DNA of 64,000 nucleotides. Source: Cystobasidiomycetes sp. EMM_F5. Its lineage: Eukaryota. The DNA lies in contig JBPGPT010000015.1 of NCBI GenBank assembly GCA_051047955.1, positions 310,001-374,000 on the forward strand, written 5' to 3'. Of the stretch, positions 26,159 through 49,116 are shown in pieces (position 1 is the stretch's first letter; each line of letters opens with the position of its first letter). Made by a program: the position numbers and the translations under genes. The notes below the pieces were generated by a model that searched no databases, was not told the origin of the DNA, and worked only from the letters and a program-made list of their open reading frames with translations.

Positions 26159-27521
26159 ATGGCATCGTCAAGCCTGAAGCGCGTATGGCAGCTCTCGCCC
26201 GCGCCATGCAGCCCGCTGCGACGCGGATTGGCGACGTCTGCTCGTATTCTGCAGTCATCATCTGGAAACAATAGCAGCAGCAACGATGCTTCAAGAGTCC
26301 CGCATGCCCCAAAGGGACTCGACTCGGCGACGTCGGCGCTCGACTACAAGCTCAATCACCCAAGAGCTCGCCCGCCAAAGCTCCCAGAGATTGACCCGCC
26401 GAAATGGTCTGCAGAGTACGCAGTGACCAATATCCTATAGTGAGCGCATCGTAACACGCTGGAGACGCGACGTGTGCAAGTCACTGATGCATGCTGTATC
26501 ATCTAGTAACAGTAAGCACTCTTGCCCTGGCCAAGTGTAGTGCTTGCCCACTCACATGCTCGTCTGCGTTTGGCTTGGCTGCGACAGCTCCGCCGCCGTC
26601 TACACAACCTTTCTCGCGTCGAGTACTCAATTGTCTAGTGCAAAATGAGCCTGGTGTGCTTTCCAGAGTGTCCGGTACTCTTGCGGCTAGAGGTTTCAAG
26701 TAAGTCACTTCCGGGCAGTTTCTCCGACACCCACTATTAACATTCAGGCAGCATCGACTCCTTGGTAGTGTGCACAACGGAGGTGAAGGATCTGTCGAGA
26801 ATGTGCATAGTACTCCGTGGTCAAGATGGAGTCGTAGAGCAAGCACGACGGCAGCTGGAAGATCTTGTACGAACCATAATTTGGCCGCTTGTCCTATCGG
26901 CAGCTTATTTTCCGTCTACAGGTGCCTGTCTGGGCAGTGCTTGATTATACGCATACTCGCACTATCGAGCGCGAGTTACTGCTCTGCAAAGTGTCCATTC
27001 TTGGCCCAGAATACTTTGAAGATCAGCTAGCGACAAAGATTGAAGAAGCTCGTGCCGGTGCCGGACACCACCATGAACAAACCGAAGAGCATCATCTCGA
27101 GGCTGGTACGCCTGCAGAGGAGGCCGCGCGACAGACCATGATGGCCGCCGAGTCTTCACACCCGGCTACATCCCACCACGCCCATCACGGCACACCACCG
27201 CGCGAGCAACTGACGCCCTCTGAAGCGCTTCGCCAAAAACACTTGCATCTGAGTGGCATCGATATGATTGCAAAGACGTTTGGCGGACGTATCGTCGATG
27301 TCAGCAACGATTGCGTGATTGTCGAAGTGTCTGGCAAGACACAGCGAATAGACGCATTCCTCAAACTCATTAGACCGTACGGTATCCTCGAGGCAGCGAG
27401 AACTGGTACAATGGTCATGCCCCGAGCGCCAATACAATCACCTTGGTCTGGCCTGGCCGACGAAGAGCCGGCTGAAGAGGAAGTTGCAGCCATTGATGCC
27501 GGTCTCCTCCCACCCGGTTAG
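26159..27521 (+). CDS. ILV6: Acetolactate synthase regulatory subunit, mitochondrial
   Basis: SATSALDYK, NILYNTP (via a microexon), LNCLVQNEPGVLSRVSG, GVVEQARRQLEDLVPVWAVLDY, GILEAARTG, LLPPG*. Confidence 0.96.
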
Positions 27522-27661
27522 GCATAGACAGGAGAACGACGCTAGCTGTATTGGTTGACAAGAATGCAGTGGTTGTACAACATCATCGAGCAACGAGACT
27601 GCGGGATCAAAAGAGGTGATGATGATGTGACAAGTATGACAGAACATATCCGCCATGGCCA

Positions 27662-28378
27662 CTATGGTCGAGATTTGCGCTTCTTGCCTTTTGAGGGCGC
27701 TGCGGCTCTAGAAGTATTGCGCATCTGCTGAGCCTTGTTCTTGAGCGTTCTATCTGTCCTTTCCTTCTTTGCCTTGTCTCTCGGATTTGCATCATTGTCG
27801 GCATTGTTGGGCACTTCGACAAGCCACTGATCCTCCTGATCTTTGTTTGCGCCCTTGTATCCGTACCGTGCAACGTACTCTTGCTTCTCCTCATCAAACA
27901 CCATACGCTCCCTCTTGGGCTTGGGAGCGATACCTTTGGACGTTGCAAACTTTTCCCACTTTGTCTTTTCACGGGCTTTCGGTAGCGGCTTCTCTCGTGG
28001 CAGGACTGTCGTAATCTCGGGTAGGTGTGCCATCACACCGTCCTCTGTGACCGTGGTTGGCCGTTCCCACAGTGCGTTGACGAGACCTTGGATGCCTTCG
28101 CGGGTATTGTATGACAGCGATTCCTCCCTGTCGGCCTGGTAGCTCGACACATCGAGAGGGGACGGGTCGAATACAGCCAGTAGCCCGACATCGTACGATA
28201 GTGGTTCTGCAGTCTTGGGGAGCAACGTTTGTCTGCGCAGGATGAGATTTCAATTGTCAGAATTATCGAATTTCAAGCCGACTGCCGACCCTCACTTCTT
28301 GGACTGCCTGGCGGCAAGCGTGGGTGCTGCATCTATAATCACAGCGCTCGTCGAAGCAACTGGAACAGAGTCTGCCAT
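27662..28378 (-). CDS. RRS1: Ribosome biogenesis regulator Rrs1, N-terminal domain only (short form)
   Basis: YDVGLLAVFDP, QGLVNALW, TTVLPREKPLPK..TKWEKFA..KGI, RYGYKGANK, WLVEVP; ends PSKGKKRKSRP*. Confidence 0.93.
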
Positions 28379-28732
28379 GGTGTTGAAATCTTTTTGGTTT
28401 GTTGCAGACAGAAGCAACGCTCGGTTGATCCGATGTCGACTACAGCAGTCAAGAGCATCTCCGATGTCTAGCTGGGCAGCCTCTGTTCACGTTACTAGGC
28501 GTCCCGACAATGATAAAATCTGCTCATCTTTGCATGACTTTCACGCTTGTTGTTGACTTGATGCATCCAGCCAGCGCGTCATGCAAATGGCTTCTGGCTT
28601 TCTTGACTGCCCGAACTCCAGGAAGTCTGAGTCAATTTGCCGGACCCACAGTCTGAAGGCACATATGGTACTCGGACATACGCACAAGTGACTCTGCGCG
28701 CCATTCGGGCAGCGAGACTCTGCTAGGATCCA

Positions 28733-31164
28733 ATGGCCAAGGGATCCAACCTCAAATTGTCTGGAGCGGCCGACAACGGCAGGCTGAGAGTCAACGATGA
28801 GGACGCATGGAACCTGGATGACTCGGACAATGACGACGCGCTCAGCAGTGGACTCCCGTCTGCCAGGACATCGATCTCTACAGTCGCGCAGCAGGCAGGT
28901 TTGGGACGCAAAGGGAGTATCGGTACACTCAGCGCTGGTACAGCAAATGCATCTTCGAGTAGTGTCAAAGACAATGCGGCTCCCAACGCGTCCCTAGGCC
29001 AAACTTCTTCCAGTCAGCGCACGACTAGTGCGCCGCATGTAGCGACATCGTCAAACGCGCCTGCCCGGAGCTTGAGTCCGCCTCTGGCAAACAAAGCAGC
29101 CACACCCGCCAATGCCTTCAAAGAACGTGGTCGCCAGACTAGCTTTGGATTTTGGGAGAGGCTGAGCGGACTCGGTGCGGCTGTAGCAGGTAGCGGTGGC
29201 AGTAGCAGCTCCCCCAATAACGCTGGCGACGATAGTCTGGCAGAGACGTCAGGCTACACGCGTTTCGACGATACTGTAGAGCTTGAAGATAACTTCGATG
29301 GGACGTATTCGGTCAGCGCCGCGACTATCAATCGCCCACCTAGCACAAACGGCGGGCAAAACAGGCTGCTGGGACCAGCCAGCATTGCTCGTCAAAGTGC
29401 TGGTACGGCATCCGGTACTCGAAGCGGCGCGATACCGCGTGTCCCTTCATCAAGCGCCCTGTCCATAAAAACTACTTCATTGACAAAAGGCAAGGGTAAA
29501 TTGGATAGTCCCAGCGCGACCATCGTCGGCTCGCCTAGACCTAAATCACCCACAAGGAAATGGCAAGATGGTATGCACAGCGAAGAAAGTATGCGTAAAG
29601 CTGTTCGGAGCGATTTGTCGAGCATATTGGAAGGTCAGTCTTCACCGGTCCATTCGGTTGATTATGTTACTGAATCCTGCGCAGATCCAATGCATCTTAT
29701 GAAGAACCTTTCGATAGCTACCGATGCTGTAGAGACACCGCAGTCGTCATCTTCATCTCACAACCCTTTCGACTCGGCTAATATACCTCGAGTTTCGATG
29801 GCGGCTACGTACGATTCGCCAAACGAGCAATCTTCCGTAGACCCTGCGGCATCAGCTGTGGAGACGGAAAAGCGTCAAGCTCAGATGCGGCGAGAAGCGA
29901 GCAAGCGACGGCGATTTGTAGATTGTCTTGGCAAGAATACGGTCGATGTTTCAGAGTTACGAAGGTTGGCATGGAAGGGCATTCCTGCAGAATTAAGGGC
30001 TATCACTTGGCAATTACTCCTTGTAGGCTTGTCCCACCTTTAAATCTACACAGTAGAGAGATTTGTGCTGACTACAGGCTTGCAATAGGGCTATTTACCC
30101 GCCCCCGCTTCGAGACGCGTTTCAGTTCTAGCGAGAAAGCGACAAGAATATTCGGATGCTGTACGAGCTGCGTTCGGTCGAGGCGAAGCGGCTCTCGATG
30201 CGCAATTATGGCATCAAATCCAGATTGATGTTCCGCGTACGAATCCTGGCGTACCGCTGTGGGGCTTTGCGAGTACGCAACGAGTACGTGTATCTAAGCG
30301 AAGTTGGCCCGGAGGTGGTATGGCTGATTAGACCGCCAATTTGCAGAGTCTCGAGCGGATATTGTACGTATGGGCTATTCGGCACCCCGCCTCCGGCTAT
30401 GTGCAAGGCATCAATGACCTGGCAACGCCATTCTTCCAAGTTTTTCTGTCCTCATTCATTGGTGGGCACGCTAGCCTTGTGACATGTGCTGCGCTGCTGA
30501 CCAGTGCATCATCAACAGATTGCGAGGTAGAGGATTATGATGTCTCGGTGTTGCCTGAAGACGCTCTGTCTGCTTTGGAAGGCGATACGTTCTGGTGCCT
30601 ATCGAAGCTACTAGACGGTATACAGGACAATTATATATTTGCTCAACCTGGCATACATAGACAGGTGGCTAGATGTCAAGAGCTGTGTATGAGAGTTGAC
30701 GGTAGGCAATTCAGGAGGAACCGAGGCCAAAGAGGCTGACTTATATGTGATTAGCCCCATTGGCGAAGCATATGGAAGCAGAAGGTATCACGTTCATACA
30801 ATTCTCCTTTCGCTGGTTCCACCTCCTCTTCCTTCGTGTGCTGCCGGTCAATGCGGTCATCCGGATGTGGGATACCTACATGGTGAGGGACTTCGACAAG
30901 TGCACACTGCCAAAACTTCTGCTGACGCGGGCTGATCTCCAGTCGGAAGGTTCTGACGCCTTTGCAAACTTCCATACCTACGTGTGCTTGGCGTTTCTGC
31001 TCCGCTTCAGCAAGAAACTACTCGCCATGGATTTTCAAGGGTGCATGCTCTTCTTGCAGGATCCGATAGACCATAACGCATGGCAGGAGAGTGATACAGA
31101 GATGCTGCTAAGCGAAGCGTACATGTGGTCAGAGTTGTGGAGCGGTACGAAGAAACCGACTTAG
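28733..31164 (+). CDS. GYP1: Rab GAP, TBC domain (Gyp1/TBC1D22)
   Basis: LRRLAWKGIP.ELRAITWQLL, WHQIQIDVPRTNP, ERILYVWAIRHPASGYVQGINDL, FWCLSKLLDGIQDNY, IRMWDTY. Confidence 0.95.
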
Positions 31165-32143
31165 TTGTATTAGTAGGGTACCGCCTTCGTGTATTGCCGA
31201 CGAAATAGTAGCCCGATAGCAGTCGTGGCATCCCCGCTTTGACCACGCCCGTTTGTCTGCGTATAATATGGCAGTTCGGTCATCTTGGAACTGGTACAGC
31301 ACGCTATGATGGAGAGTCATTGAATCTGCTAAAACGAGCCGCCAGTACACCAAACTGGCCATTGCTGCGGAACAGGGTGTACCGGAACAGGAGGTGGTTC
31401 CCAAGAGAGCAAAACGTGTATGTCGGTACTGCCTGGTGCCGGCATGTCAGTCTGGTGGAAGCAGCCCAACCGGGTTTATGAAGTGCGAAAAGTGGATCCA
31501 CGACCTGGCGAGAAAGGAATACAAACCGCTGGGCAAGATCATGAACCCGGACAAATATGATGCCAAGCTGAAAGAAGTGCTGTGATGGAATTCTTGTCAG
31601 TATGATGTACGCAATGTATGCGGTGTGATACAACACGCGCCAATAGTTCAGCGGTTAGAATCTTTCACTTCCAATGAGAGGGCCGGCGTTCGACTCGCCG
31701 TTGGCGCATTGCTTTTGTCCGTGGAGGCCAGGTCATCGAACGGGCCAGGTGCCATTTCTTTTTAGCATATGTCCTTCTTCTTAGCAGACAAGGATAGACA
31801 TGCTGTTTGCAAGTCTGTATGCGTGGAATCCAGGTCTCGCATGGCCAGATTTTGTTCACTCCACTGCTCCGCGCTGTCGAGTTGTCGAAAAATCATCAAT
31901 CTACATCAATGATCAGAATGTATGGCCTTTGTCATGAGCGTTAGAGGTCGTCAAGGTCTACGATGAAACAGACTTGACATATACAACTTCACAAGAGACC
32001 ATGATACTTGTCGCAATGTCAGTTCAGGTCAGCAGAGTCTACCACAGCAGATTTAATCAGTAAAGCACGACCATTGGTATGCACGCCTTTCGAAAAACGT
32101 CACGAGATGGAGTAGAATTACACAACCCTGCTGATGACAACGA

Positions 32144-32863
32144 TTACTCGTCTGGAACTTCCCTCTCTCCGCTGTGAATCTCGTCGATGATGTTGTGGGG
32201 TGGTTGACCGTCTACAGTGCAGCCGACGGATTGGGCGGTTCCTAGAATCTCGAGCACGACGCCCGATAGCTCCTTTGCCAGCGACTTGAATCGCATTGTT
32301 CTCGCAATGTCAATGATGGTGTCGAAATCAATATTGCCAGAGTGTTTGATGTTTTTCTCCTTCTTTCGGTCGCGAGGAGGCTCCTTGAGCGCTCTGATAA
32401 CGAGCGAGGAAGCAGAGGGGACAACGGATACAGCCGCTTGACGATTTTGGATGGTGAGCTTGACAGTCACTCTCAGTCCTTTCCATTCGGCAGTGTTCTT
32501 TGCAATGTTTTCTCCGACAACCTTTGGTGACTGTGGAGAGTACCGCTCAGCTGTCTTTCCTTTCACATCCTTCCGTAGCATTGCTCTAGGAGGCGTACCA
32601 AACCAAGAGGACCAATCTTTGGCGCCAGTGCTGAAGATGCACCGACTTCTCCACCGGTCGCACGAAGGTAGATGACCTTCACCTCACTAGAAGAGTAATA
32701 GAACACGAGTCATGTGCGTAAGCTTTGTCGTTTCTGATGGTTCCGCTTGTGGACGCATCGATCATGGCATTCTACGCACTTTGGGTCGAATTTCGGACTA
32801 ATAGATCCAGAAAGTCAGCGCAAGTTAGGATAGGTATACGAGCAGCATGGGCACTCACGGCAT
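32144..32863 (-). CDS. RPL12: 60S ribosomal protein uL11 (L12)
   Basis: Exons [48 protein letters not shown]...[22 protein letters not shown]. Confidence 0.97.
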
Positions 32864-33051
32864 GGTGAATGTGTGTGTGAGGACGGTGGACGTCGATAAT
32901 TTGCTGCAGGTCTGAGCCTCTCAGTCCCTCGAGGCTGATCGAGGGGGAAAAGGACAAGTCTTCCTTAGGGAGCTTAGTCAGCCGAGCCAAAGAGAAAGAG
33001 AGCGAGGGACTTCATTTCAAGACGCAGCAAGTCTGTGTAATCCCTGCAAAC
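32864..33051. promoter_or_regulatory. Putative bidirectional promoter RPL12/RACK1
   Basis: 188 bp between the divergent ATGs of two ribosomal protein genes. Confidence 0.6.
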
Positions 33052-34453
33052 ATGGCAAACGAATCATTACAGTTCAAGGTGAGCTGCAGTGATCGCTGGC
33101 AAGCAGTGCCCGGGTGGAGTTATGCTGATACTTTGCAACTTGCGCAGGGCGTTCTTGAGGGTCACGGAGGGTACATTGAAGACATCGCAGTCCTGCTATA
33201 GCTCGGAAACTAACCAGACCCTACTTTCTCTCTTTGCGAACGAAACATCAGATGGATCACTGCCATCGCTACCTCTCGTGAGGAATCGCACAAGAACACC
33301 AATCTCGTACTCGTCTAATAACTTGCCTCTACAGCCGAGAATCCAGATCTTCTCTTGACCGCTTCCCGGGACAAGACTGTCATTGTCTGGACCTTGACCC
33401 GCGATGACGCGCAATACGGTTACCCCAAGCGCATCCTCAAAGGCCACAACCACTTTGTTTCGGACGTAGTCATCTCGTCCGATGGTCAATTCGCTCTGTC
33501 CTCGTCCTGGGACAAGACCCTCCGTCTGTGGGATCTGAACACCGGTCTCACCACCCGTCGCTTCGTCGGCCATACTTCCGATGTCCTCTCCGTCTCCTTC
33601 TCTGCCGACAACAGACAGATTGTTTCCGGCTCCCGCGACCGTACCATCAAGCTGTGGAACACCCTCGGCGAGTGCAAGATGGATATCCGCGAAGATGGAC
33701 ACACCGAGTGGATCTCTTGCGTCCGCTTCTCGCCAAACCCAATGAATCCCGTCATCGTTTCTGCCGGATGGGACAAGGTCGTCAAGGTCAGTGCACACCT
33801 CTATACAGCCCCTTCTTCCCATCACGCTCCCCTCTTGTGTCCCATCTCTACTGGCTTGATGATCATTTTACATATTTCACAAATATTTGCTACTTTAGAA
33901 GGGCTATCTACCCTGATGAAAAAGACGGATTATTCCACCAAGATCTCTGACCCTCTTCTGCATACGTCTTGCCATGTGCACGTACCTCTATGTAGTCTGC
34001 GATACTGACGATTGTTCCGTATTGCTACATTAGGTTTGGGAACTCAACAAGTGCAAGCTCCGCACAAATCACTTTGGTCATACCGGATACATCACAACCG
34101 TCACAGTCTCTCCAGATGGTTCGCTGTGCGCATCGGGCGGCAAGGATGGCGTTACCATGCTCTGGGACTTGAACGAGGGCAAGCACCTCTACTCGCTCGG
34201 CGCCGGCGACATCATCAATGCCTTGGTCTTCTCGCCAAACAGGTACTGGCTGTGCGCTGCTACTGCTTCGTGCATCAAGATTTTCGACCTCGAGAGTAAG
34301 TCTATCGTCGATGAGCTCAAGCCAGACTTTGCGTCTTCCTCGCCAAAGGCCCGCGAGCCAGAGTGCTTGTCGCTCGCTTGGTCCGCCGATGGCCAGACCC
34401 TGTTTGCTGGCTACTCTGACAATCTCCTCCGAGTCTACAACGTCGTCGGTTGA
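33052..34453 (+). CDS. ASC1: RACK1/Asc1/Cpc2, 40S WD40 protein
   Basis: [75 protein letters not shown]. Confidence 0.98.
33852..33953 (+). ncRNA. SNR24: Box C/D snoRNA U24/snR24 in RACK1 intron
   Basis: Inside the ~247-nt intron 33787-34033: box C TGATGA (33857), guide ATATTTGCTACT plus D' TAGA, C' TGATGA, guide CACCAAGATCT plus box D CTGA (33947). Both guides match those of yeast snR24, which is also hosted in ASC1. Confidence 0.92.
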
Positions 34454-34982
34454 GCGAGTCGGTATGTCTAGTCGCCGCTAAGTAGGGAGCTGGGCGACAA
34501 GGAAAAGTACGATGCACACTCAAGACTCATCAAGTATTTCTGAAAACTTGGCCGCACAAACTCGGCGTCGTGTAGACACCTCTTCGATTTTTACCTCGAG
34601 TTTATTCCAAAACTCCAAAATCAGCCCGGATGCACAGTGGGAGAGGTTACGTGCATGGGCTAGATGCTCGGGTGAACGTAAAGCCAGGTCGAAGATTCAT
34701 TTGAAAAGCCTGTTTGTTGCACGTATGGCAATTCGTTGTTGCTCATTCTACCATGCAACGAATGTCGAGCTTTCCGCCCCACATCGTGCACTTAAGAGCA
34801 GACTCAGCGGAAGAACTGATGGCTATCAAACGTCATTGACATACCTCATGCAGAAGTCGGCACAAACATTTGCTGTCGCAGGTCGCGTCACGTGCCTGTC
34901 TCGGTGTGTATAAACCGTCTATCCGGCTGAACGGATGGGTTGACTGGCTGCGGCACTTGTCGATATAAAGCACCATAGCATC

Positions 34983-35508
34983 ATGGGCGACACTGAGCTC
35001 GACACCTTTGCATTGTGAGGCCTTCTATCAACCAAACAGGCTGCAACCACCGTAACATGCGGACAACAGAGCATACAGCGGTCTGCTAGCTGCCGGTGGT
35101 GTGATTGGATGGATGCGAGCAGGATCAACAGCGTCGTTGGGAGCAGTGAGCAACAAATGCAGAAGTGACCTGTCGCCAAAGACTGATTCCCGCATTCTCA
35201 CGTAGGGTGTGGCTTCCAGCAAGTCATCCACGAAGTCACGTCAGCTCTGCAGAAGTGAGGCTGATGGCAATTCCAGGCATAGCAATGGCATACGGTGTTA
35301 ATAATGACAAGCGTATCGCTCTTGCTACATCTGCCATACTGGTTATTGCAATGGGTCGTCGCTTTCTCGTACGTACTCAAGTGAGGAGAAGGTATCAAAC
35401 TGACTAAATGCCTTTCGCAAGGCTACTCACAAATTCATGCCGTCGGGATTGATAGCTATATTGTCTGCATATTTCAGTTATCAATATTATCGACTTTTAT
35501 TCGCTTAG
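34983..35508 (+). CDS. TMEM14-family small membrane protein
   Basis: Spliced: ...LLAAGGVIGWMRAGSTASLGA-GVAS-SIAMAYG...AMGRRFL-ATHKFMPSGLIAILS; GG.IG...GS..SL and KFMP.GL are TMEM14 motifs. Confidence 0.85.
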
Positions 35509-35681
35509 CCCGTTGCAATACACCAAGGTAGCAGTACAAACAGTCCTCTTACGTATACAAACCTGATATCTGATATACTCCCCGTCTACCGACAAAAAAG
35601 CTCAGCCTCGAGCTAAGAGAGAGAGATGACATAATATGCTACACATTTGTGGGCTGACTAATGGAGTTTCTGGAGACGCGC

Positions 35682-38600
35682 TTATGATGGAAGTGGAGAA
35701 GTGTTGACTTGAGGGCTACGATTGGCAACACCCGCGTCCACAGCCTGCCGCGGAAAGACATGGCCGCTTTGATCCTCGTAATACCTTAGCTGGAGTATGC
35801 AATGAAGTCAGCTCTGGAGATTCTAAACCGTGCCAAGTAGCAAGAGACTGACTGTTTCGAGATTGCAATCGTCAATGCCGCCTTGAAGATGTTGTAAATG
35901 AGACGACCGCGACGTTACGTCGGGAAAGTCCACTATGGTACCAGCAGTGGTTTGCGAAGTTGTCTCGGGCAATGGGTAAGAGGCGGCTTTGGATAACGAG
36001 GTGTTGGCTTGGGGCTGAAGCCGGGCAGGATCCGAAATTCGGGATGCTATGTCTAGCAAAGAATGTTCCGAGGACAAAGAGTTCTGCTTTGACGGTACAT
36101 TGCTTGTAGGAGGGGACAGAGTGTCATTGTTTCGTGTGCTGCTTCGAGAGAGGGAGCTGAAATTTGGGTCATGACTGCCGGTACGCGACATGTCTCTGGA
36201 GTTGTCGTTGCTCGAGCCAAAGCTGATATCACTGGCACCCTCGCTGTTAGCTCGGCGGGCTGTAAGCCTCTTCCACCTTGATGCCGCTCGCACAGCATTG
36301 ACGATGTATGATACCGAAGGAATGGCAATAGCGTTGTCAACGTCGGTCTCTGTAACGGCTGGAAGGCTTGTGACGTTGACTTCAACGGACGGCAGTGGAT
36401 CTTGACCGTCTAATGTGAGCCAGGGGTGCTCCTGTGTACTGGCTGGTCAGAAATCGCTCAAGCACGATAGTTTTTGTGACCCACTCTTAGAGCGTCCATC
36501 TTGATGCGCTGTTCTGGGTCCTTCTCAAGCAGTTGAGCAAGTAGTGATTTCAAGGACGGGCTGAGCTCTTTTGGAATACGAACACTGTCTTTTGGGTTTT
36601 AGCGCTTTTGACACAGTTGTGCGATCATGCTTACGGATCATTCTTGATCTTATCATACAAGTCCAGCATTTGAGTAGTCTCAAAAGGCAAGTGACCGACT
36701 GCCAGACAATAAAGCGTAACGCCTAAAGCCCAAATATCGGTCGCTTTGCCAGAAACCTTGCCGGCATGAGCTAGAATGCTACTTCAGCTGGAACGTAGCG
36801 ATGTAGGCTAAAGTATACGCACAAATGCAGAGTTCCGGACTCATGAAAGCTGGACTGCCAGCCGTCTTCAGTTCCGTCGGGTTATCCTCGTGTAAATTTT
36901 TATCGAACATCTCGGAGACACCAAAGTCGACCAGCTTGATCTCCTCAGGATCGGCCATCCTAAGTATATTTTCGGGCTTGATGTCACGATGAATTATGCC
37001 GTTGTGATGTAGGTACTCGATAGCTAATACGATTTGACGGAAGTAATTTCGAGCTGTCTCCTCCGGCAGCGGTTCGGCGCTCTCATTCATGTTGACTTGC
37101 ATAATCGGCCCATTGGCGCACAGTTCAACAACTTATGTGGTACATGGAGAAATCAGAGCAAGGTCAAAGAGGATGTGTAAGCAATGACGTACCCATGAAT
37201 AAAGAGTCGTCTTCCTGGACGTCCAATACCTCAAACAATTTGACGCAATTCGGATGATCTACCTTCTTCATTACTGCCACCTCGGAGCGGATGAGGTCAA
37301 GATCATTCCGCAACTGAGTAGGCGATGGCTGCAGATCATCGTCCTCGTGTCTGGCATCGTCGGCCGAGTGTCGCCCAACTGACGAGTCTCGTGCCATGCC
37401 TCCTCGTTGCCGCATAGGGACTGCGCCTCTTCGAAGACCTCTGCCTTGCCTCCTCATCATCTCACTCTGCGCGCGCTTCCGCAAGCGAACTTTGGAAAAT
37501 TCTTTGACTGCATAATCTCGGCCAGTGTTTTCGTCACGGGCTTTGGTGACCACGCCAAAACTTCCTCTTCCGATATCTTCGGTCAAGATATACTGGTTCA
37601 ATTTTCGCTTGCCATCAGGTAGATCCTTGTACCCTGCTCCATATGTTTCTTTGACCTCTTTTGGCGCATTCTGCGAGCTGCTTCTCCTGTGGCGAAGAAA
37701 GCCGACAGGCGTTGAAAAGTCGTTCACGCTTCCGGTGGATGATGTGGAGTTGTTGCGACTCTGAGGACGAGGACGTGGTGAGGGATGCCGTGTATCTGGT
37801 CGCAGGTTAGTATTCGAAGATGGAGGCGATGCGTATTGCGGAGGCGATGAGACAATGTCGCTAGGAGACGGCGACGAGGCGGCGGAAGTTTCTTCAGCAA
37901 TGTCATCCTCGTGAGAGTGGTGTGACGTGAGTGGGAAACGATAATCGGTAGAATGTCTTTGGGATTGCTCGTTGCCGCCTGGACTGTGCGGCACACCGAA
38001 GCGATGAGGGGTCGTGTGTCCAGTACTACTGTGCGGCGAGGGCGGAGCCTCGCTGCCCGGCGAATCAGTAATGGCCTGCGACGGAAGACGTTGTAAAAGC
38101 GCTCTCGCTGGATAGACGGGCTTTCTCCTCTCAGCTTCTCTCTCGCGCTCCTTATGATCTGTCGAGACCTCCTCGGAAGAGCTCGTAGGTGTTATTTTCC
38201 GATGTTCACCGTTATGATGGGGTTTTAATGTATTTTCGGAGGATTCTTCTTTGTTTGCGCCCGCATTGCTACTCTGTGCACTCTTCGCACTATGTCTCTT
38301 TGATCTATTTCTAGCTAACACGCCAGTCGTAGACTGAACAGTTTCCACAGGTGTTGCTGGAGTGACGTTGACCTTGACATTGTCGTGCAGTCGTGTTTGC
38401 GAATCAACCGAGAGTCGCGGCGGGTTCCCCGGTTTTGGCGGAGCCGGCTGGGAAGATTGCGGACGTTTAGGTTCTTTGAATATCTCGGGCTCTTCTTCGC
38501 CCTCCAAAGCTTCCGGCGACTCAGCCATCTCGCAGCTCTCGTCATTTGCCGTCCCGGAACGCAGTCTGTCCTCGTCGGACGAGTCCATCGAGACTGGCTC

Positions 38601-38903
38601 TGCCGTTATTTGCTCGCTTGCGGTACTTTCATCACCACTATTAGGAGTGTCCTTCCGAACTTCATCAGGTTTACCGTGACTAGACCCCCGTTTCGTCTGG
38701 CTGGAATCAGTTGAGCATGCTGGCTTTACGGTCGAGCTTGAACGAGTGCTATCCAGGGAAGCTCGTTCCACATCTTTCTCAACGCTGCGTTTATTACCAC
38801 CATTATTGTCGTCAGGCCGACTCTTTGTCGTCTTGCCGGATTTCGTTTGCTCGTCAGCGGTGCTCGGGATTGACAACTTTTCGAGCAGACCAGGCAGAGG
38901 CAT
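35682..38903 (-). CDS. CaMKK-family Ser/Thr kinase (Sak1/Ssp1-like) with long low-complexity N-terminus
   Basis: LNQYILTEDIGRGSFGVV, YAVKEFSK.RLRKR, EVAVMKKVDHPNCVKLFEVLD, HRDIKPENIL, DFGVSE, GSPAFMSPELC, DIWALGVTLYCL; 3' end approximate. Confidence 0.9.
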
Positions 38904-39296
38904 TCCCTAGACGGCGCCGAGTGGGAAGACTGTACGACAAAATCAAACAGTTTGTTTGTGTCGTCCTTCAGATAAGTGCAGAAGCAGCAGCCAGCAGCTG
39001 ACCCGCAGGAAATGATCGACGGGTATGCCGACCAGAAATAGCCAGTCATGTCCGGGCCCAAAATTGCGGGATCCGAGGTACATCTTTTATGACGTGACAG
39101 TCATGCTTGACGGCAACGAAGTCTAAGCTTTCACATTCGAACCACAGCGCTACTATTCTGCCTATTGTCCAGCTCAACAACATGCGCATGGGTTTACTTG
39201 CGGCGAAGGGGAAACAACGCAATACGAGAGTGGGTTGCTTGCGGGGTTACCGTGAAATCATTCCAAGCCTTTGACGGAAGATAGACCTTGCAAAGC

Positions 39297-40976
39297 TTAT
39301 GCTGCTGGTGCAGTCGAGACGGTGTTCTGGTATTGCTCCATCTCGGCATCGAGATCCGCTGCAGTGACGGCTGGTCTCTCGCTGCCTCCCTTACCACCTC
39401 GGCCGCGACGTCTACCACCGCGTCCACCTCTTCCTGATCCTCCTGCATTCTCCTCTGTTGCTTCCTCGGTAGCTTTACCCTTTCCGCGGCCTCGTCCGCT
39501 ACAGATTGCCAATGGTGAGTCCAGATTTCAGAGGTAAAGTGAATGGCGATGGTATTGGCCGACGATATAGTGGTAGTAAGAAGATATTTTTGTATGTCGT
39601 TGAAAATGTGGTAAAGCAGAGGAAGAGTGAGAAAGAAAGCGAAAAAGCATATCCGTAAGCCGATGTTCTCCGTTCCGCTGGGCAATTTTTCGGACGTCGG
39701 TGAGGGAGATATGGGGGATAAGCGCTGCCATAACAGGAAGACACCGTGTAGGCGGAACGACCGATTGACTCGTATCCGCACGACAGCAACTTGCTTTCTG
39801 TGGCAGCTGCATGGCGGACCCGCAGGATGTCGACTGTCAGCGCCTAAGAGGTTGCATGCCGTGTCTATATCGCAATCCCTCCAATATTAGGGCCCGAGCA
39901 CCTGTGAGATCACCGCAAGTAGCTGTCTGACAGGCCGTTACCAGGCGGTAGCGGCAGGCAGGGCCCGTGCCTCGGTCCCCGCGCGGCAAACACAAGCGGA
40001 GGCTGTAGCAGCACCCTCCCACTGGTGTATGTGACATACGTCAAGCTGGCCTACGGGTGACTGACTGCGCGGCATGCGCCCTCATACTCTCCGTGACGCA
40101 ACAAGTAGTTCAAACCAAAAATATATTTACCTAGCAGTAGCCTGAGTCGGAGAGATGACGTTTGCTTGAGCACTCTTGGGAGCTGGCGCAATGCGCGAAT
40201 TGAGGGGAGGGGGTGGGAGTCGTGTGGGATCAAACAAGATCTCCACCTTCATTGGCTTCGCTGAAAATTATGAGAAGAGAAATAGCGGGAAGTGCCAGTG
40301 ACTGCGTAAGCATCGTTGTACCAAAGTATGCACCAGAACCTGACCGATGCCAAGTTGCCGGGTGCAAATTGCATTGCTTGACAGCCTTACATTTGTCATT
40401 ATCGATGACTCTCCGGTTGTAGGTCGTAAAGGCAAGTTGAGCGTCTCCCGGGCGCTTCAGATCAATGGTAGCGACACCGGTTGACTTGCCACCCTTGTCG
40501 TAAGCCAGCTGGACTTTGGTGACTGGTCCAATAGTATGGGTAAAGAGCTCCTGTAAAACGTAGCGGGTGGAAGCGATGTTGAGCGATGCGGCCGTTTACT
40601 CCGGGCGGCGAGGCCGTTCGGGCGAAGGAGAACAGAAACATACGCGAATCTGATGCTCCGTCACATCTTGCGGCAAATTGGATACAATGATCTTGCTGCC
40701 ATCGGCCATTAGCGGAACGGCAGCTACTTGCAATGCAGGGATGCTAGCAGCTGGTCCTGCATTATTGGCAGCGGCAGCATTGCCGGCGTAGCGGTTCCTG
40801 ACGGGTCCTACACCACCGCTAGCTTGGGCGGAAGCGACAGCAGCACGTCCTGCTGCCTTTGCATCACCTCTGCCACCTCTACCTCTACCACGGTTGCCTC
40901 CGCGTCCGGCCGAAGCCTTTCGACGTTCTGCCCGCTTCTCCTCGACAATGTCGTCCAGGGGTCGGTCGATATCCAT
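39297..40976 (-). CDS. YRA1: mRNA export adaptor Yra1/Mlo3/ALYREF
   Basis: N-box MDIDRPLDDIV, RG-rich linker, RRM SKIIVSNLP..V...IRELF..TIGPV, KPMKVEI, C-box TAADLDAEMEQY; four exons, last intron 39499-40130. Confidence 0.93.
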
Positions 40977-41393
40977 GATCTGAGCGTAGTTTATGCTGCG
41001 GCTACGGTAGAATGAGTAAAGTGCGAGGAGTGCACGATGTACGTGTGGTCATGCAGAGCTAGCGTCAGATATGTGTTTTGATGGCTACTGAACGGGCGCA
41101 GATCGATGCCAGCCCGGATTGGGAAAGCCTTTTGCGGTTCGTACAGCTTGACCAGCGCGCCGAGAACCGCTCAAGACCGTCGAGGGTTTCCACTTACCTA
41201 TGGAGTACTGGTCGGGTGCTGTCCCTTAGTTGTCTGCCGGGGGGGTTTGGTGGTCGAGTCCGTAAGGATTCAAAAGGCAAACGCCAGTCTCGACCGCAGT
41301 CAAGAATGGTATGCCCCGACTGAAGTGCAAAAAGAGGCTGTCTACAATACACGAATCAATACATAGGCTTCCTACGCACCAGTTTCCAATCCG

Positions 41394-41760
41394 ATGCCCT
41401 TGATTTCTACTCTTCCCTCCCCAGATGACCCCACTACTGACTTCACTCATCGAGAACTGACATACGCTTACGATCTCACCTTGGCGAGTCCAACAGGAGC
41501 TAGGGAGCAATCAGACTGTGCGCACTTAATGGAGATGCGGCGCTCAATCCGCTTTGCTGAATGGGCCGAGTCAAGTAACATGTACGCTGATTCCCCAATA
41601 AGTGCTACTCATGCTCACAATGACTATGTCGTTGGCAACACCACCCTCCGCACTCATACTACACCGCTACAGGCATGAAGCGTGGCCTTATGTGCAGAAC
41701 AGCGGCCGGAATTTTCCCGGTCTTCAACCGCACAAAATGGATACTCTGCTTGTTCAATAA
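41394..41760 (+). CDS. Hypothetical protein (uncertain)
   Basis: 94-aa ORF (MPLISTLPSPDDPTTDFTHRELTYAYDL...) and further short open frames; no family recognised. Confidence 0.2.
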
Positions 41761-42397
41761 ATGCAGAAAGCTTCCGAGTCTGCATCGACACCAATATATG
41801 CTCTGTGTCGCGGCACTTGGGAGGCTGACGAGTGCCGAACTGGTGCATTCTTCTGCACCAGACTCAGAGGAGCAAAGAAGCTGCAGGCAAACATCACTAA
41901 AGGCCTCGGTCTGTTCAAACGGAGAACATACGATAGATTGGGGCGGACATTGGGCTGAGGTGGCTGAGGTTCTGCAAGATAGTCTTTCCTGCATCACCTC
42001 GACTGCAGACTTTGTCTTCTTGAAAAAATCTCGCCGTCAAGCTATTCAATCAGTCTCGCTTTCAGGACAAGGAGATGGAGCAGTGTTCAATCAGACAGTT
42101 GTAAGGAGGAGTTGTTGTGGTCGTTACAGAGACACGTCCTGCGATCTGGATTCGTCATTGGCAACCCTTCTCAGCCACTGTGCAGATTCTTTCACACTCA
42201 GCGACCTTTCACTGGCATTCCGAGAGAAGACCGTCGCGAGCTCTGTTGTGCCAATCCTTCCTGCTATCGCCAGCCACTTTGAGAAAAAGATGACCGCGCT
42301 GAGCACGTGACCCGGTTTACCGTGTTCGAAGCTGGAGGGAACTGAGGGTTTTTGATTGTTGCGACACTGCCATACGCGACTACGACCACCGGCAAGC

Positions 42398-43496
42398 ATG
42401 TCAGCAGCCAAGCGACGCAAGCTGGATCAGGATGTCATGTCGAATGGCAGCGCTATCGGGGGAGGAGCCAGTCGAACTGGAGCTGGGAGAAGGGCCGCTG
42501 CCGCTGCCGCTCAACAAGTTACGGCAGGTCACATAGCAGATCTTGGAGGCTCAACTGGCATCAATAGAGGTGGGAGAAGTGCCAACGGTGCTGGCGCTGC
42601 TGCGATTCGCAATGGTGGATATGCGCCCGTCGTGAGTGCAGAGTAGTGACGTTGGGCGCGTTGGATACAGGCGAAACAGCTCAACCGACTATGTGAGATA
42701 GATGACTAACGCTCAGCTCTTATCCGCAGCTATCTCTTGCAACACTTCCGATATCCACGCTGTCCCGCTACTGCCTACATTACGGCTGCGTCCCACCCAC
42801 GCCGTTGACAATGGCCCAAGCAATACATCCAACTCCGCCATTACCGCTCGAGCTAGCTCTTGCAGGCTCAAACCAAGTCATTCCACGTCGCAGAGCCTCG
42901 CTGGTCCCTGACCGTAAGCCACGGGCTGCTGTGCGAAGTGGTGTCTCCAGCTCGACCATCAAATCCGGCAATCCGGCCGACGCCACTAAAAGTCAAGGCG
43001 CACAGGAGGGGCACGCGAGCAATAACGCGGTGGATGGCGTCAACAGCGGGCCGAAGCAACACTATCCTGCCGCAACAATGCAAGTGGATACTGCAAGCCG
43101 TGTACATCCCGATGAAGCAGTCGCTCAGTCCGGCTCTTCCAAGTCCAAGCTCAAGCGTAGCCGAAGTGCCTCGACGACATTCAGTGAACAAGCCCAGCGA
43201 GAACTTGACGGTAGTGAGACGAATTGGGGCAACGCCGGAGAACCCTTCGCAACGGACCTACAGGGAATGACAGCATGGTATGGCGGCGAGGAACAAGCGC
43301 GAGACCGATTAGCCAAAGCCGCTCAAGCGCACTGGGACAAGATTACTGTCGTAAAGGAAGCCGAGACTATTGTCAACTTTGCTTATCGTGTCAGGATGGG
43401 CAGTGAGTCGCATCCAGAGACCCAAAGCAGGCATCGTACTGAAGTATGTTCGTAACGTAAACAGGCAAAGTTTTACGCTCCGTACCGCCCATCTGA
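42398..43496 (+). CDS. SAP30-like Sin3-binding-domain protein
   Basis: NLS AKRRK; LATLPISTLSRYCLHY and C-terminal RLAKAAQAHWDKITVVKEAETIVNFAYRVR resemble the two parts of the SAP30 Sin3-binding domain. Confidence 0.7.
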
Positions 43497-43757
43497 AGGC
43501 GTGCTCCGTCTTCGACATTGCCCGTGCATCTAAAGATTGTGGTTCGCAAAGATAACATCTTTGCATCGATAGAATCTAGTTGTAATCTACATATTGGCAG
43601 CATGGCTTTTCGTAGTAGAAGCGACGTTCTAGCTGAGCGCATGTCACAGGCACTGTGGCTCGTCATGTTGTAAACTGTGCAAGCCACTCGTTTCCACCCT
43701 AATCGTGCCACAAACGGCTGCATTGTTTGCTTTTCGATAGCTGGACTGAGCGACAAC

Positions 43758-45325
43758 ATGACCATTCCAATCAAGTCACCTTCTGCAAGATTGACTACTG
43801 AACATCTTGCAATGCAGGAGGCTGCTTTGTCGTCCTCCTTGTCGAAAGCGAGTAGCAGTGCTGGGTCAAGCACGAACACCTCGCCGAGAGCGCCAGTTGC
43901 ACGGCTGCCTGAGGATTTCGATATCGTGGCCCACTATGCAGAGTTGTTACAGAGAGACAGCGTGAGTTGTCGGTCATTACTTGCATGGAGCAATCTGCTA
44001 ATAAATTGGTCACTTTACGCGTTCAGAATATCGCAATGCCTGTGGCAGCCATTGAATGCCTGTCGCAACTGATAGCGCGGTCGGAAGGTGTGTGAGAGTA
44101 CTTCAGAGCTGGCAAGGAGGGCTAGATATTAATCATTATTGCCATCACAGCTCAGACAATGTCCGAATTAATAGCAGAGCTCACTGCCGGGGCCGAATTA
44201 CTCCAAAGATCATCATTTAACCCTGTCGCACTCACCGCAGGAGTCGACCTACTCTTGCGCTTTGTCACTCTGCAGAGACCTTCAGGACATCAGCCGTTTT
44301 CTATGCACAAGCGCGATTTGGTCGTCCGTGCAAAAGAGTTTATATACGACAGCCATCGGTGCATAGACAAGATTGTAGATTACGCGTGTGGTCTCATCAA
44401 AGATGATGCAGTGGGTGACGGATCAGTGACAGCCCACAGCATGACTGATGAAGTTGGTTTTGCTCAGGTCGTTTTGACACACTCGCACTCTCGAGTAGTC
44501 GTACAGAGTCTGATACAAGCTGCCAAACAGCGTAAGCGCTTCCGAGTCTACGTCACAGAATCCCGACCGGTGTGTTTTTGCACGCTTTGACTGTCGCGAT
44601 CTGCTAAGCCTGTTCCCTGGCAGTTTGGGCTAGGCATAAAGACACATGCTGTCCTCACGCGAGCTGGCATACCCTGTCAGATTGTACTTGACTCTGCCGT
44701 CTCCTTCGTCATAAACAAAATCGATATGGTACTATTGGGAGCAGAAGCTTTGGCGGAAAACGGAGGGTCTGTGCAGGATGCAATGCTACTAGCAGTACAT
44801 TCTGACTTTGGTATATCGCCAGGCTGGTCAATTTTGTAGGCAGTTCACAGATGGCTCTGATAGCGAAAGCTGCGGAGAAACCTGTGTATGCATTGGCGGA
44901 AAGGTGCGCCTAACTTTCAAACATGCAAAGATTCCCATCTGACACTGTTCCAAGCTTCAAATTCCTGAGGATTTTGTGAGTGTCATTCGTATGGATTTAT
45001 AGCTCCTTGCTTATCATCTTCCATCAGCCCTCTCGACCAATACGATCTCCCAGTGTCTGTCCCTGTCCTGCGATTCGAGTCTGGCGCAAGCGAGACGGCC
45101 CGCGATGTTGAGCGACCTAAGGAGATCATCATTCCGCCCACTCCGTCACGCCCGCTTGTAGATTCCCCAACACCGGAGGCGCTGCAGATGACGCCTGAAC
45201 AGATACAAAATAACCCGCTTGTCGACTACACGACACCGGATCTTGTCACGCTTGTCATCAGCGACGTGGGCATCTTGACGCCTGCAGGAGTGAGCGATAC
45301 GCTGCTCCGCATATACAGTGGGTAG
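43758..45325 (+). CDS. GCN3: eIF2B alpha subunit
   Basis: FDIVAHY, MPVAAIECL, VLTHSHSRVV, FRVYVTESRP, LDSAVSFVI, GAEALAENGG, PVYALAESFKFLR.FPLDQYDL, VDYTTPDLV...SDVGILTPAGVS. Confidence 0.95.
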
Positions 45326-45397
45326 CAATTTGCTGAGCGCAATTGTTCCGTGCTATAATTGTTGTTGTCCTTGATTATCGTTCCGCGTCGAGGAGCT

Positions 45398-46030
45398 TTA
45401 TGACCTCGGTTTTCCGCGGGAATTGCTGCTTCTGCTGACTCCCCCTCGGCCACTGCTGGCGCCTCTGCCACCTCTGCTACTGCCACCGCCCCGACTACTT
45501 GCGCCTCGTCCGCGTATCCTGCTTGAAGATTTGCCTCGGTCGGATGAGGTCGATGCTAGGCTTGCGCTGCCTCGTCCGCGCGATGCAGTTCTAATGGCTT
45601 TCCGCACGTTGACTGTCCCACTCTCTGGGTCCGTACCCTGTCGGATCTTGTCAACCTTGACGGCATTGTCTAGACTGCCCAGGATGGCCAAAGCTCGCTC
45701 TTTTTCGGTAGTGGCATCGACTTCGTTTTGTTCAAATTGCCTGCGCTTGCCTTTCTGACGCTCGGACTCTCCCTTCAACGTGGTGTCGTACTTGCCCAAA
45801 GACGCCGTAGAAGTTTTCGTCACGAACAATTGTCGTTGCAACTCGACAAGTTTTGCGGACCGGGGAAGCGCTTCAATCCCTTCGTGGCTCGTAGGATGGA
45901 CAGATACGGGGGCAGGGACAGCAGGACCAGGACTAGATTTTGGCTTAGACTTCTTCTTGACGGGCGTGAGAGCAGTTTTGGTTTTGGTCTTTGTTGCAGC
46001 CTTATTTTGCTTGGCCGAATGACGCGCCAT
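45398..46030 (-). CDS. Stand-alone protein matching the C-terminal region of long-form Rrs1 (K-rich N-terminus, RGG tail)
   Basis: Intronless 210-aa ORF; ELQRQLFVTKTSTASLGKYDTTLKGESERQKGKRRQFEQNEVDATTEKERALAIL...VNVRKAIR aligns with the C-terminal STAS.G...GKKRKF...EK...L.LL region of human RRS1 (from memory). Confidence 0.8.
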   Translation of the reverse strand: MARHSAKQNKAATKTKTKTALTPVKKKSKPKSSPGPAVPAPVSVHPTSHEGIEALPRSAKLVELQRQLFVTKTSTASLGKYDTTLKGESERQKGKRRQFEQNEVDATTEKERALAILGSLDNAVKVDKIRQGTDPESGTVNVRKAIRTASRGRGSASLASTSSDRGKSSSRIRGRGASSRGGGSSRGGRGASSGRGGVSRSSNSRGKPRS

Positions 46031-46479
46031 TGTGAACAGTGTCGTGTGAGAGCGTGACTCTGCTTCAGTAGAGAACGATTGCAGGCTGTTCGATGTTGCT
46101 GCTGAATCAGTGCTGATCTACTCTGCAACTAGCATCCAAGCAGGCAGAGCTCTCAGGTAACTTTTCTACTAAGACGGACGGATTCGAGATATGGATGACA
46201 CGGCAGACGTTAGCCCACACCTATAGCGATACTGCCTCGTACTGGTCGTGTGTGGGCGAGAACGTATGGGATAATTCGCCTTCCCCAATCTGTTGTCGAC
46301 GAACTCTCCAACGACCTCTTCAGTGTTGCCGAGGTCGCATATTGTTGTCTGATGGCAAGCGTATGCTTTCTTAACCTACAGCACTTATCCCCGGTGATCT
46401 ACACTATTGCCCTGTCAGACTGTACCACCACTAATTACATCTAACTGATATACAGACGGCCACTTTCGCACCATGGTAC

Positions 46480-49116
46480 TTAACGAGGGCTTTGTGGAAG
46501 ATACGCAATGTTCGCATTCTCATCGATGTCGGCTGACTTTGCAAAGTCGGAAGTCTTGTGCTGTAACTTCTCCCTGCCCTCCGAGACTTCCGTATGATCC
46601 TCACTGGCAGCAGCACTAGGCAGTCGGAGCTCCTTCCGCTTGCGGTACACCTTTAGAAAGTATAATGTCTCAAGCGCTCGTGTCAGCAAAGGCGTGTCGT
46701 ACGAATTATCACCAGTTGCTCACCACGTCAACAATATTTACGGTCAGAAGAGAAGCGAAAACCACGGCAACCAGCCACCATTCTCCAATTAACGCGTATA
46801 TGTACGCATATCCGCCTTCGACTTCGCCAAAAAGCTCTTGAATATTCGGGGGTGGGCCAATACTAAGGTAATTGAAAGGCTGAGCCGGCTCAAGGCGCAC
46901 ACAGATAAAGAGACTGACTTTAGACATGTCATCGCAAGCAATCCCACACCCAGAAGGATACGCCAGTAAACGGACAATTTTCGCCAGATTGCTGTAACAC
47001 GTAGTGATATAAGCTAACGGCAATAAAAGCAGCAAGAGTAACTCACTATCAATATTGCGTTGTAGTAAGGTAAGTGCGGCCAGAGTAATGAGGAAGGCGC
47101 CGAGATCAGTAAAAATGTACATGCAAGAACCAAATACTGGCTCGAAGAGCGTCAAAATCGCTCGTCCATATAGCTCCGTAATCGTGACGTTGTCAATGCC
47201 ACTTCCGTTGACTCCATCGGCCAGATCCCACAATCCTCTGTCCATCGCATCGTAGAAAGCAGTCTGTGCGACATCACGTAAATTTCCAGTGAAACAACTT
47301 TTGAAGATACTGACAGTGGGAGGGAAGCCGTAGCTGTTTGAGATGAAGGACGTCATGCTTAAGAGTTCTGCGCCATATAACACCAGCCAATTGGTCACAT
47401 TGTCGCCAGACAAGGATGTCACAGTGGCAATTCGACCTAGCCGGCCATTCAATAACGACACTCAGTCTTGGCGAGTTTCATGTCCAAGGCGCGAAGCCAC
47501 GCACCGCGATAGTTGAGACCCAGCGTCCCCGCGATACTAATCATTTCATCCGATGTGAAAGCGTTGGTGAGTTGTTCTATCGTCGGCGGCGGTGTTTCCG
47601 GCAAGGTTGAGCCCGCAAGTTCCGACAATCTTGTGACCTCGAAGGTTAGACGCGACAAGCCAACCTCCATGGCAACACCTTGTATCGACTTCGCTATGGA
47701 CCGTGTGACGAGCAGAAGAGCGACGTGTAGTGCTACAACTACACTTTCAGAGCGAAAAGCCAATGCACGATCAACGATAGCTTACGAAAATGGAGTAATG
47801 CCCACAAGACGTGAACTTTTGGACCTCCGCGGAGGTGATGACTTTGATGACTGAAATAAAGATCTGTTCATTGCACCTCAGATGTTACATCGCTACCGAG
47901 GGGTTGTAATACGTACAATACAAACATCGGAAGATGCCGACACTGAACAGCAGAGCCGTAAGAATAGGACCATCGGCGATGCCGGCCGCGACTCCGCCGA
48001 GAAAGACCTGCAGCGGGAAGACGAAATTGTCAGTATCAGCATGACCCTGGATTGCCGTAAAAAGAAGAAAACCTTGAAGGATTCAAACAAGCCAATAACT
48101 GCAGCGGCACCACTCAGTTACGTTTCACTCGGTAATACGAGAGCCGCCTACTTCCTTCGCCCAACACAATCAAGGTGAGCGCATTGAACCTTTCGCAGAA
48201 GTATTCCAACTCGAAATGCGGGCCGCCATCCATAGTGACCGATAGATATGTAAAGAACCATTCGGCAGCAATTCCCACTGTCCACAAGCTGATTCGTGCA
48301 ATTGCTGAGGCTTTGTTGTGACCAAACGAGGTGCCAAGAGCTCCAAACCAGCATACTGCGCTAATAGCGATACCCAGCATGTTGAAAGCGATAGCTCGAA
48401 GGGGCTGCCGCGCTCGATAGGCGAAGACCAGTGGTATGAGATATTGTACCAAAAGCAAACCCCGTGAGGCCGCAAATATGCCAGAGACGGCACGAACGGC
48501 GCGCTCAATATCTGCCGGGTGATCTGGTTCTTGCATTGTCACGCGAGAGACGAGCTGGGGCACGAGATCTTCGGTCTCCGCCTCGTGTGGAGATATGCCG
48601 TACTGTGCTTGAAAGTTGCCAGCGACCGCTGCCAGATACTGAACGCCATGAGGCAGTCAGCCAATGTTTCCCGACGCGAAAGGCTCTAGCCGACTCACAG
48701 CAAACGTCAGCATGGAAATGGTATTGAAGACCGACCCGAGTCCGTCTCTAGCGCCCCACCGACTCGCATAGAATGACTGCGAGGCGAAGACTGACCAAAT
48801 CACCGCCACATACATGATATAGCTTCCGATAGTTGCGCCGTTACTGAGCTGAGTCTCTTTGCTGAAGACGGTGAGGGCGGCGACGAGACTGAGGTCAGTA
48901 AACAGTTCGACGTATGTGACGTGTATATCCTTTCGCTTGAGATGACCGTCTTCTTCTTGGATACCGCCGCCCGCATAGGGGTTCTTTATGAAATGTTTAC
49001 CAGTGTCATGCTTGCTGTTGCTCGTAAACCAGGCTCGGAAGACGCCCCAGCTGCACAGGATGGTAGTCAGCACTTTCCATGCGGAAAGAAAGCTGATGCT
49101 CTCACAAGCTTGACAT
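46480..49116 (-). CDS. LtrA (low temperature requirement A)-family multi-pass membrane protein, copy 1
   Basis: VTYVELFTDLSLVAAL, IWSVFASQSFYASRWG, ASRGLLLVQY, ERFNALTLIVLGEG; many introns. Confidence 0.85.

Follow-up and report, generated by a model that had tools for sequence, protein, structure and literature searches.

Two RRS1-related genes in one window

RRS1 is a universal assembly factor of the 60S ribosomal subunit in eukaryotes. Here we describe two genes between which this protein appears to be divided in a stretch of DNA from Cystobasidiomycetes sp. EMM_F5 (64,000 nucleotides; positions 310,001 to 374,000, forward strand, of contig JBPGPT010000015.1, GenBank assembly GCA_051047955.1), and the window below means this whole stretch. 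The first gene, which we call the core gene, encodes the conserved Rrs1 core, and the second, the extension gene, encodes a protein similar to the part that follows the core in longer Rrs1 proteins. The conserved part of the extension is called the module. The features of both genes are as follows.

27662-28378, minus strand: RRS1 core gene, from the list of open reading frames (ORFs), a splice check and a Pfam match
28378-28296, minus strand: exon 1 of the core gene, 83 nt, with its ATG at 28378
28295-28233, minus strand: intron of the core gene, GT...AG (GTGAGG...GCGCAG), 63 nt, spliced in frame
28232-27662, minus strand: exon 2 of the core gene, 571 nt, with its stop at 27662
45398-46030, minus strand: Rrs1 C-extension gene, intronless, 210 residues, an ORF with its own ATG
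45551-45883, minus strand: conserved module in the extension gene, residues ~50-160, from alignments and tblastn footprints

The spliced coding sequence of the core gene is 654 nt long and encodes 217 residues, with one stop codon, which is terminal. Its spliced N-terminus aligns from residue 3 with P0268, an annotated model of a Cyphobasidiales metagenome-assembled genome (MAG). Exon 2 alone matches PF04939 (RRS1) at positions 1-164 of 165 (E 2.2e-59; 200.5 bits, cut-off 25), and it turned out that the protein holds the whole Pfam RRS1 core and nothing beyond it, followed by a short K/R-rich tail. In a sequence search of the PDB, the core protein matched nine sequences, including yeast, human, Chaetomium and Aspergillus Rrs1, with residues 17-202 of 203 covered in yeast Rrs1 (E 4.6e-36) and residues 32-197 of 365 in human RRS1 (E 1.6e-30). 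There is no room for a downstream exon of the core gene, because only 140 bp separate its stop from the end of a convergent gene, that of the acetolactate-synthase small subunit (ILV6). No Rpf2 gene was found within the 64-kb window.

The ATG of the extension gene at 46030 is the first Met downstream of an in-frame stop at 46117. The protein consists of a K-rich leader (residues 1 to ~48), the conserved module (~50-160) and an RGG/S-rich tail, and the module contains the blocks LPRSAKL-EL-RQL, TSTASLGKYD, KG-RR-FE and VN-RKAIR-AS-G-GSA-L. A Pfam scan of the protein gave no family, and no RRS1 match at E up to 1. A search with the single sequence found eight standalone homologues without Pfam domains (46-58% identity), together with five fused proteins, in which PF04939 is followed by a C-terminal module (E 2.5e-8 to 3.8e-4); these five come from Tremella, Cryptococcus, Saitozyma, Dimargaris and one further source. 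The resemblance is confined to the region behind the core of the fused proteins (about residues 193-321 of the tblastn queries). In the alignment of standalone and fused modules, 13 columns are invariant, around TSTASLGK[YF]D, KG-[KR]R-F and N-RKA.

For the comparison with known structures, a single-sequence phmmer search of the PDB with the extension protein gave a chance-level match only (E 2.1) and did not reach human RRS1, while the module profile had human RRS1 (8fkp_ST; E 5.6e-12) as its only PDB match, with the blocks lying in the post-core extension of that protein. No yeast or Chaetomium chain was matched by the profile. Taken together, these similarities identify the extension protein as the Rrs1 post-core extension. 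One candidate was discarded along the way: MAFFT hinted that the leader (MARH..KG..) might be a relic of the WE-FA-KGI segment of the core, and hhalign found nothing there.

The AlphaFold model of the extension protein has a mean predicted local distance difference test score (pLDDT) of 61 and a predicted template modelling score of 0.23. Helices are predicted at residues 57-79, 106-130 and 142-149 with pLDDT 80-87, and the rest is disordered. A Foldseek search of the PDB with this model gave nothing with E < 9.7, as expected because this would be a peptide-like factor; the predicted model likewise fits a factor of the peptide type. Searches of the ESM Atlas with the whole protein and with residues 48-162 gave no usable match. 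A complex prediction of the core protein with residues 40-165 of the extension protein scored 0.00 and is evidence neither way.

To see how the two genes relate to an undivided Rrs1, fused proteins were compared with the whole window by tblastn. All five queries (5 of 5) matched the window at two places only, with the core part at 28276-27692 and the tail part at 45880-45530; the tail-part matches have E values of 2.5e-13 to 5.9e-17, and every other match in the window has E of 0.6 or more. For instance, in the 331-residue Rrs1 of Rhodotorula, the core protein covers residues 1-189 (53% identity) and the extension protein residues 208-314 (41% identity). A comparison of the two protein families by hhalign gave no similarity, so the two genes are complementary and not paralogous. 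Both are on the minus strand, separated by 17,019 bp, and in the direction of transcription the extension gene comes first. Between them are genes for a TBC-type GTPase-activating protein (GAP), a tRNA, RPL12, a RACK1-like WD40 protein, a kinase, an RGG protein, SAP30 and an eIF2B-family protein, as well as some further ORFs. The extension and the core are thus not one polypeptide here: the extension has an ORF and a conserved start to itself, 17 kb from the core gene. The two loci are homologous to complementary, non-overlapping parts of one gene, which supports the view that one ancestral RRS1 has become two complementary genes, independent of each other and beyond the reach of cis-splicing.

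A preliminary description of the window, made from its letters alone, had proposed such a split. Both ORFs were confirmed at the coordinates it gave (27662-28378 and 45398-46030, minus strand). It had limited the first to the Rrs1 core, in agreement with the Pfam, yeast and human matches above, and had likened the 210-residue ORF to the C-terminal part of Rrs1 only, which is borne out by the fused matches, the tblastn footprints, the human profile match and the Rhodotorula alignment. The motif block that it gave for human RRS1 is indeed present in the profile alignment to 8fkp_ST. Its statement that the halves do not overlap in homology agrees with the hhalign result, its figure of about ten genes between them is roughly right, and its argument that cis-splicing cannot reach across holds for an extension gene lying 17,019 bp upstream on the same strand.

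Split and fused RRS1 in fungi

To learn how widely the split occurs, we summarized the state of RRS1 in related sequences. Judged by their conserved termini, at least 12 distinct relatives have a free module with its own conserved start, and 14 have a short Rrs1 with the same end point as the core protein. The closest relatives of the core protein are all short (14 of 14; 59-70% identity), while its identity to the nearest fused forms is only about 53%. The core protein aligns end to end with these short forms. In all of the aligned short proteins (9 of 9) the ends agree within a few residues, about 15-20 residues past the last core helix, with a K/R-rich tail; the longer predictions among them differ by unrelated N-terminal read-through only. 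The ORF of the standalone module is intact in 12 diverged lineages at 43-53% identity. These 12 proteins have 28 invariant columns, located in blocks that are also conserved in fused proteins, and eight of them have a start of the M-[AP]-R-H type. A wide profile search also gave other short Pfam-free matches, most of which, by their first 45 residues, begin with the last helix of the core; they were taken as last-exon fragments of fused genes, left untallied and excluded from the standalone count.

The nearest named relative with the split is the Cyphobasidiales MAG, in which the halves are on different contigs and neither model joins them. On a 245.6-kb contig, its module is contained in a 442-residue model that also takes in an unrelated cysteine-rich protein; the 927-residue model on a 29.8-kb contig combines its core with a TBC GAP. 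A single contig of 31,726 bp in another relative is recorded as carrying both halves.

Some annotation problems became apparent in this MAG. The public NCBI models P0263 and P0268 mis-model both halves. In the 442-residue model the cysteine-rich partner lies upstream and looks secreted, and the model is named "Rhodanese- sulfurtransferase". The label "Rhodanese-related sulfurtransferase" is also given to the plain Rrs1 of several other fungi and looks like a propagated misnomer.

The fused state is found in many other fungi. A profile that had absorbed core columns listed full-length fused Rrs1 only, and among the matches listed 120 of 120 carry PF04939; these fused forms come from Agaricomycetes, Tremellomycetes, Rhodotorula, Sporobolomyces, Rhodosporidiobolus and Microbotryum. 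Further fused Rrs1 proteins were found in Puccinia, five Ustilaginomycotina and two Kickxellomycotina. Six metagenome loci are also all fused (6 of 6): the module lies a few hundred bases 3' of the core on the same strand, and these sequences are distant (34-40% identity). The neighbour genes of the window had no match in these six loci.

A maximum likelihood tree of the core was built from 36 Rrs1 proteins (14 short, 19 fused and three ascomycete short forms). In this tree, whose alignment retained some extension columns that are gaps in the short rows, all 14 short forms fall in one clade (100/99). The short clade joins fused forms from Rhodotorula, Puccinia and one further source (91/81 and 89/86). 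The three ascomycete short forms stand apart from the short clade of the window. In the tree of the module, the 12 standalone forms also make up one clade (12 of 12; 99/97), and the fused modules have terminal branches at least as long as theirs (0.12-0.38). The standalone clade persists in a large module tree to which 172 fused rows were added (Shimodaira-Hasegawa-like approximate likelihood ratio test, SH-aLRT, 99). No fused protein lies inside the short or standalone clade in any of the three (0 of 19 in the core tree, 0 of 18 in the module tree, 0 of 172 in the large tree). The trees thus have fused outgroups and a split clade nested among them, and what they indicate is one RRS1 fission inside Pucciniomycotina, with both products apparently constrained ever since. 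The split clade sits in largely uncultured yeasts.

The gene fission that the preliminary description read from the window is therefore supported, since the split is common to relatives and each half forms one clade nested among fused forms. Its further suggestion, that the free-standing extension marks a transitional stage towards the short yeast form, finds no support: the short forms of ascomycetes and those of the window's clade have independent origins, because they are separate groups in the core tree.

The arrangement can be compared with several known proteins. Fused Rrs1 of basidiomycetes (Rhodotorula, 331 residues; Puccinia sorghi, 378 residues; Cryptococcus; Agaricomycetes) has the same core and module, but in single genes. 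S. cerevisiae Rrs1 (203 residues) and other short ascomycete forms have the same size and end point as the core protein, although they belong to a separate group in the tree. In papers on yeast, the name "Rrs1 C-terminal extension" is used for a segment within the Pfam core, which differs from the module that is split off here. Human RRS1 (365 residues; chain ST of PDB 8FKP and related pre-60S entries) has a core like that of the core gene and extension blocks like those of the extension gene; there, core and extension are joined in one polypeptide, whereas the window encodes them in two genes at a distance of 17 kb. According to a preprint on human pre-60S particles (bioRxiv 10.1101/2023.03.14.532478), the N-terminus of BOP1 is in state A the centre of a hub to which peptide elements of RRS1 bind, and the C-terminal extension offers a mechanism to recruit the 5S ribonucleoprotein particle (5S RNP) and the L1 stalk. 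The human extension has become visible in pre-60S structures only recently, and its interpretation there is that of a tether pre-positioning the 5S RNP.

Origin of the split

We consider it highly probable, from the sequences compared, that an ancient fission of RRS1 became fixed in a clade of Pucciniomycotina yeasts. Such a fission would have begun when RRS1 was duplicated, after which one copy lost the extension and the other the core. On this account the core gene stops in the former linker and has acquired its short K/R-rich tail; the extension is now a second gene, with a newly acquired start codon and K-rich leader, and the two genes would be transcribed separately. The basic new ends, the tail of the core and the leader of the module, are compatible with each protein carrying its own nuclear import signal.

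As the route of the fission, we favour duplication with complementary loss because the two genes have kept the same strand but stand in permuted order. Gene fission through duplication and complementary degeneration is a general model, and the window resembles it in its two complementary non-overlapping descendants, both kept and with their order permuted; relics of the duplicates were not detected here.

Several points weigh against this account of the split. The support for placing the short clade inside Pucciniomycotina is only moderate (89/86 and 91/81). The proteins of the relatives are automatic ORF calls on short contigs, and their assignment as short or standalone rests on the conserved termini. 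No relics of the lost core beside the extension gene, or of the lost module beside the core gene, were found by tblastn or hhalign, so the duplication route is without direct trace. If the extension were solely a covalent tether, as proposed for human RRS1, a detached copy should be useless, and its retention calls for a putative further function. The evidence on copy number comes from the 64-kb window, which leaves space for another full-length RRS1 elsewhere in the genome. Finally, four RNA runs were mapped on 27100-46900 and are uninformative on expression: two gave 0 reads, the third gave three reads, outside both genes, and the fourth gave two 151-nt contigs at 44839-45138.

It has to be considered whether the 210-residue ORF is just the functionless, decaying remainder of a duplicated RRS1, in a clade that has effectively lost the extension as ascomycetes have; the RNA runs do not speak against it. 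The mostly disordered (mean pLDDT 61) and Pfam-free character of the protein fits with this, and so does the fact that short Rrs1 alone suffices in S. cerevisiae (203 residues). We regard it as very improbable, because 12 diverged lineages (43-53% identity) have kept the ORF open, with 28 invariant columns in blocks shared with fused proteins, its start is conserved, and its branches are not accelerated relative to those of fused modules; a pseudogene would not remain open and keep its motifs across such divergence. Equally hard to credit is that a normal full-length RRS1 exists outside the window and that the two genes here are extra, sub-functionalised partial paralogues. The comparison of the source genome over 64 kb leaves room for such a copy, but no fused protein groups with the short or the standalone clade in any tree (0 of 19, 0 of 18 and 0 of 172), the core protein shares only about 53% identity with the fused forms nearest to it, and its 14 closest relatives are all short. 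An artefact, either a misassembly or two halves rejoined by RNA trans-splicing, is the alternative to which we give the least credence. What may speak for it is that only two 151-nt contigs, in one run, mapped on this region of the assembly; against this, all of the aligned relatives (9 of 9) conserve a stop and tail of the core gene, whose stop here is 140 bp from a convergent gene, the start and leader of the extension gene are likewise conserved, the two genes are separated by housekeeping genes, and the same split is present in independent assemblies, including the Cyphobasidiales MAG with the halves on different contigs.

The remaining alternative accepts that the fission is real and differs in how it came about, namely by a rearrangement that broke the gene in the linker (transposition or a pair of inversions) instead of duplication and loss. 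The lack of duplicate relics near either half speaks for it, and halves that lie on one 31.7-kb contig in a relative and 17 kb apart here would be compatible with a local rearrangement. Still, a single inversion or a simple insertion cannot give the same strand together with a permuted order, and the breakpoint must have given one half a new stop and a tail and at the same time provided the other with a promoter, an ATG and a leader. We therefore think this route unlikely, though deserving of attention. The repeats around both halves, which are limited to a 25-nt match between RGG-coding stretches and one weak inverted pair, are uninformative.

The free module and the neighbourhood

For the function of the two products of the presumed fission, the human and yeast proteins give some indications. 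The core protein would work with Rpf2 on the 5S RNP, like short yeast Rrs1. The free module, mostly disordered with predicted helices, may dock at the Erb1/BOP1 N-terminal hub of early pre-60S particles in the nucleolus, by analogy with human RRS1, whose structures are the one source of functional information on the extension. Once docked, it could serve alone, as an element of the hub or a placeholder there, or work by way of a non-covalent link with Rrs1-Rpf2. Because a detached tether cannot tether, the long retention of the module argues for an autonomous role at the hub or for such a non-covalent link.

It is conceivable, and we put it forward only tentatively, that the Rrs1 extension is an autonomous early pre-60S factor, which binds the Erb1/BOP1 hub by itself, beyond serving as a 5S RNP tether. 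If so, fission of the Cyphobasidiales type would be a natural separation of function, in which the tether role is dispensable and the hub role is kept, and the extension of human RRS1 would have a second function that does not depend on linkage. More generally, the long survival of the extension as a separate protein would point to selection on the extension itself, and the split clade offers a natural test of whether the covalent linkage of core and extension matters, which bears on the proposed tether function.

The free module also appears, from the homologues found, to define a small, previously unnamed protein family without a Pfam model. Annotators leave its members unnamed or merge them with neighbours, as in the 442-residue Cyphobasidiales model. 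A full-text literature search, within the texts it could reach, found no prior report of an RRS1 gene fission; its sole match, going by title and abstract, concerns plant immune receptors.

Besides the two genes, the following features were located in the window.

28727-30043, plus strand: TBC-type GAP gene, divergent neighbour of the RRS1 core gene
31637-31708, plus strand: tRNA gene (Rfam RF00005, 59.6 bits)
40596-41048, minus strand: RGG-coding ORF
46709-47461, minus strand: ORF upstream of the extension gene
48114-48656, minus strand: ORF upstream of the extension gene, LtrA low-temperature-requirement membrane protein family, bacterial-type (PF06772, 1.4e-9)

The adjacency of the RRS1 core and the TBC GAP is also present in the Cyphobasidiales MAG, where the two are merged on one strand, and the orientation may differ. 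The tRNA at 31637-31708 is the sole Rfam match at the gathering score in the 64-kb window. The two ORFs upstream of the extension gene, 46709-47461 and 48114-48656, probably belong, as exons, to a single gene for a membrane protein. The neighbours of the extension gene are thus this LtrA-like gene and the eIF2B-family gene.

The long RGG tail is unique to the window copy among the 12 standalone proteins, the others having K/S/G-rich tails. Within this tail, 45462-45486 has a 25-nt direct match (84% identity) to 40867-40891 in the RGG-coding ORF at 40596-41048, which reflects similar runs of RGG codons and not common ancestry of the two genes.

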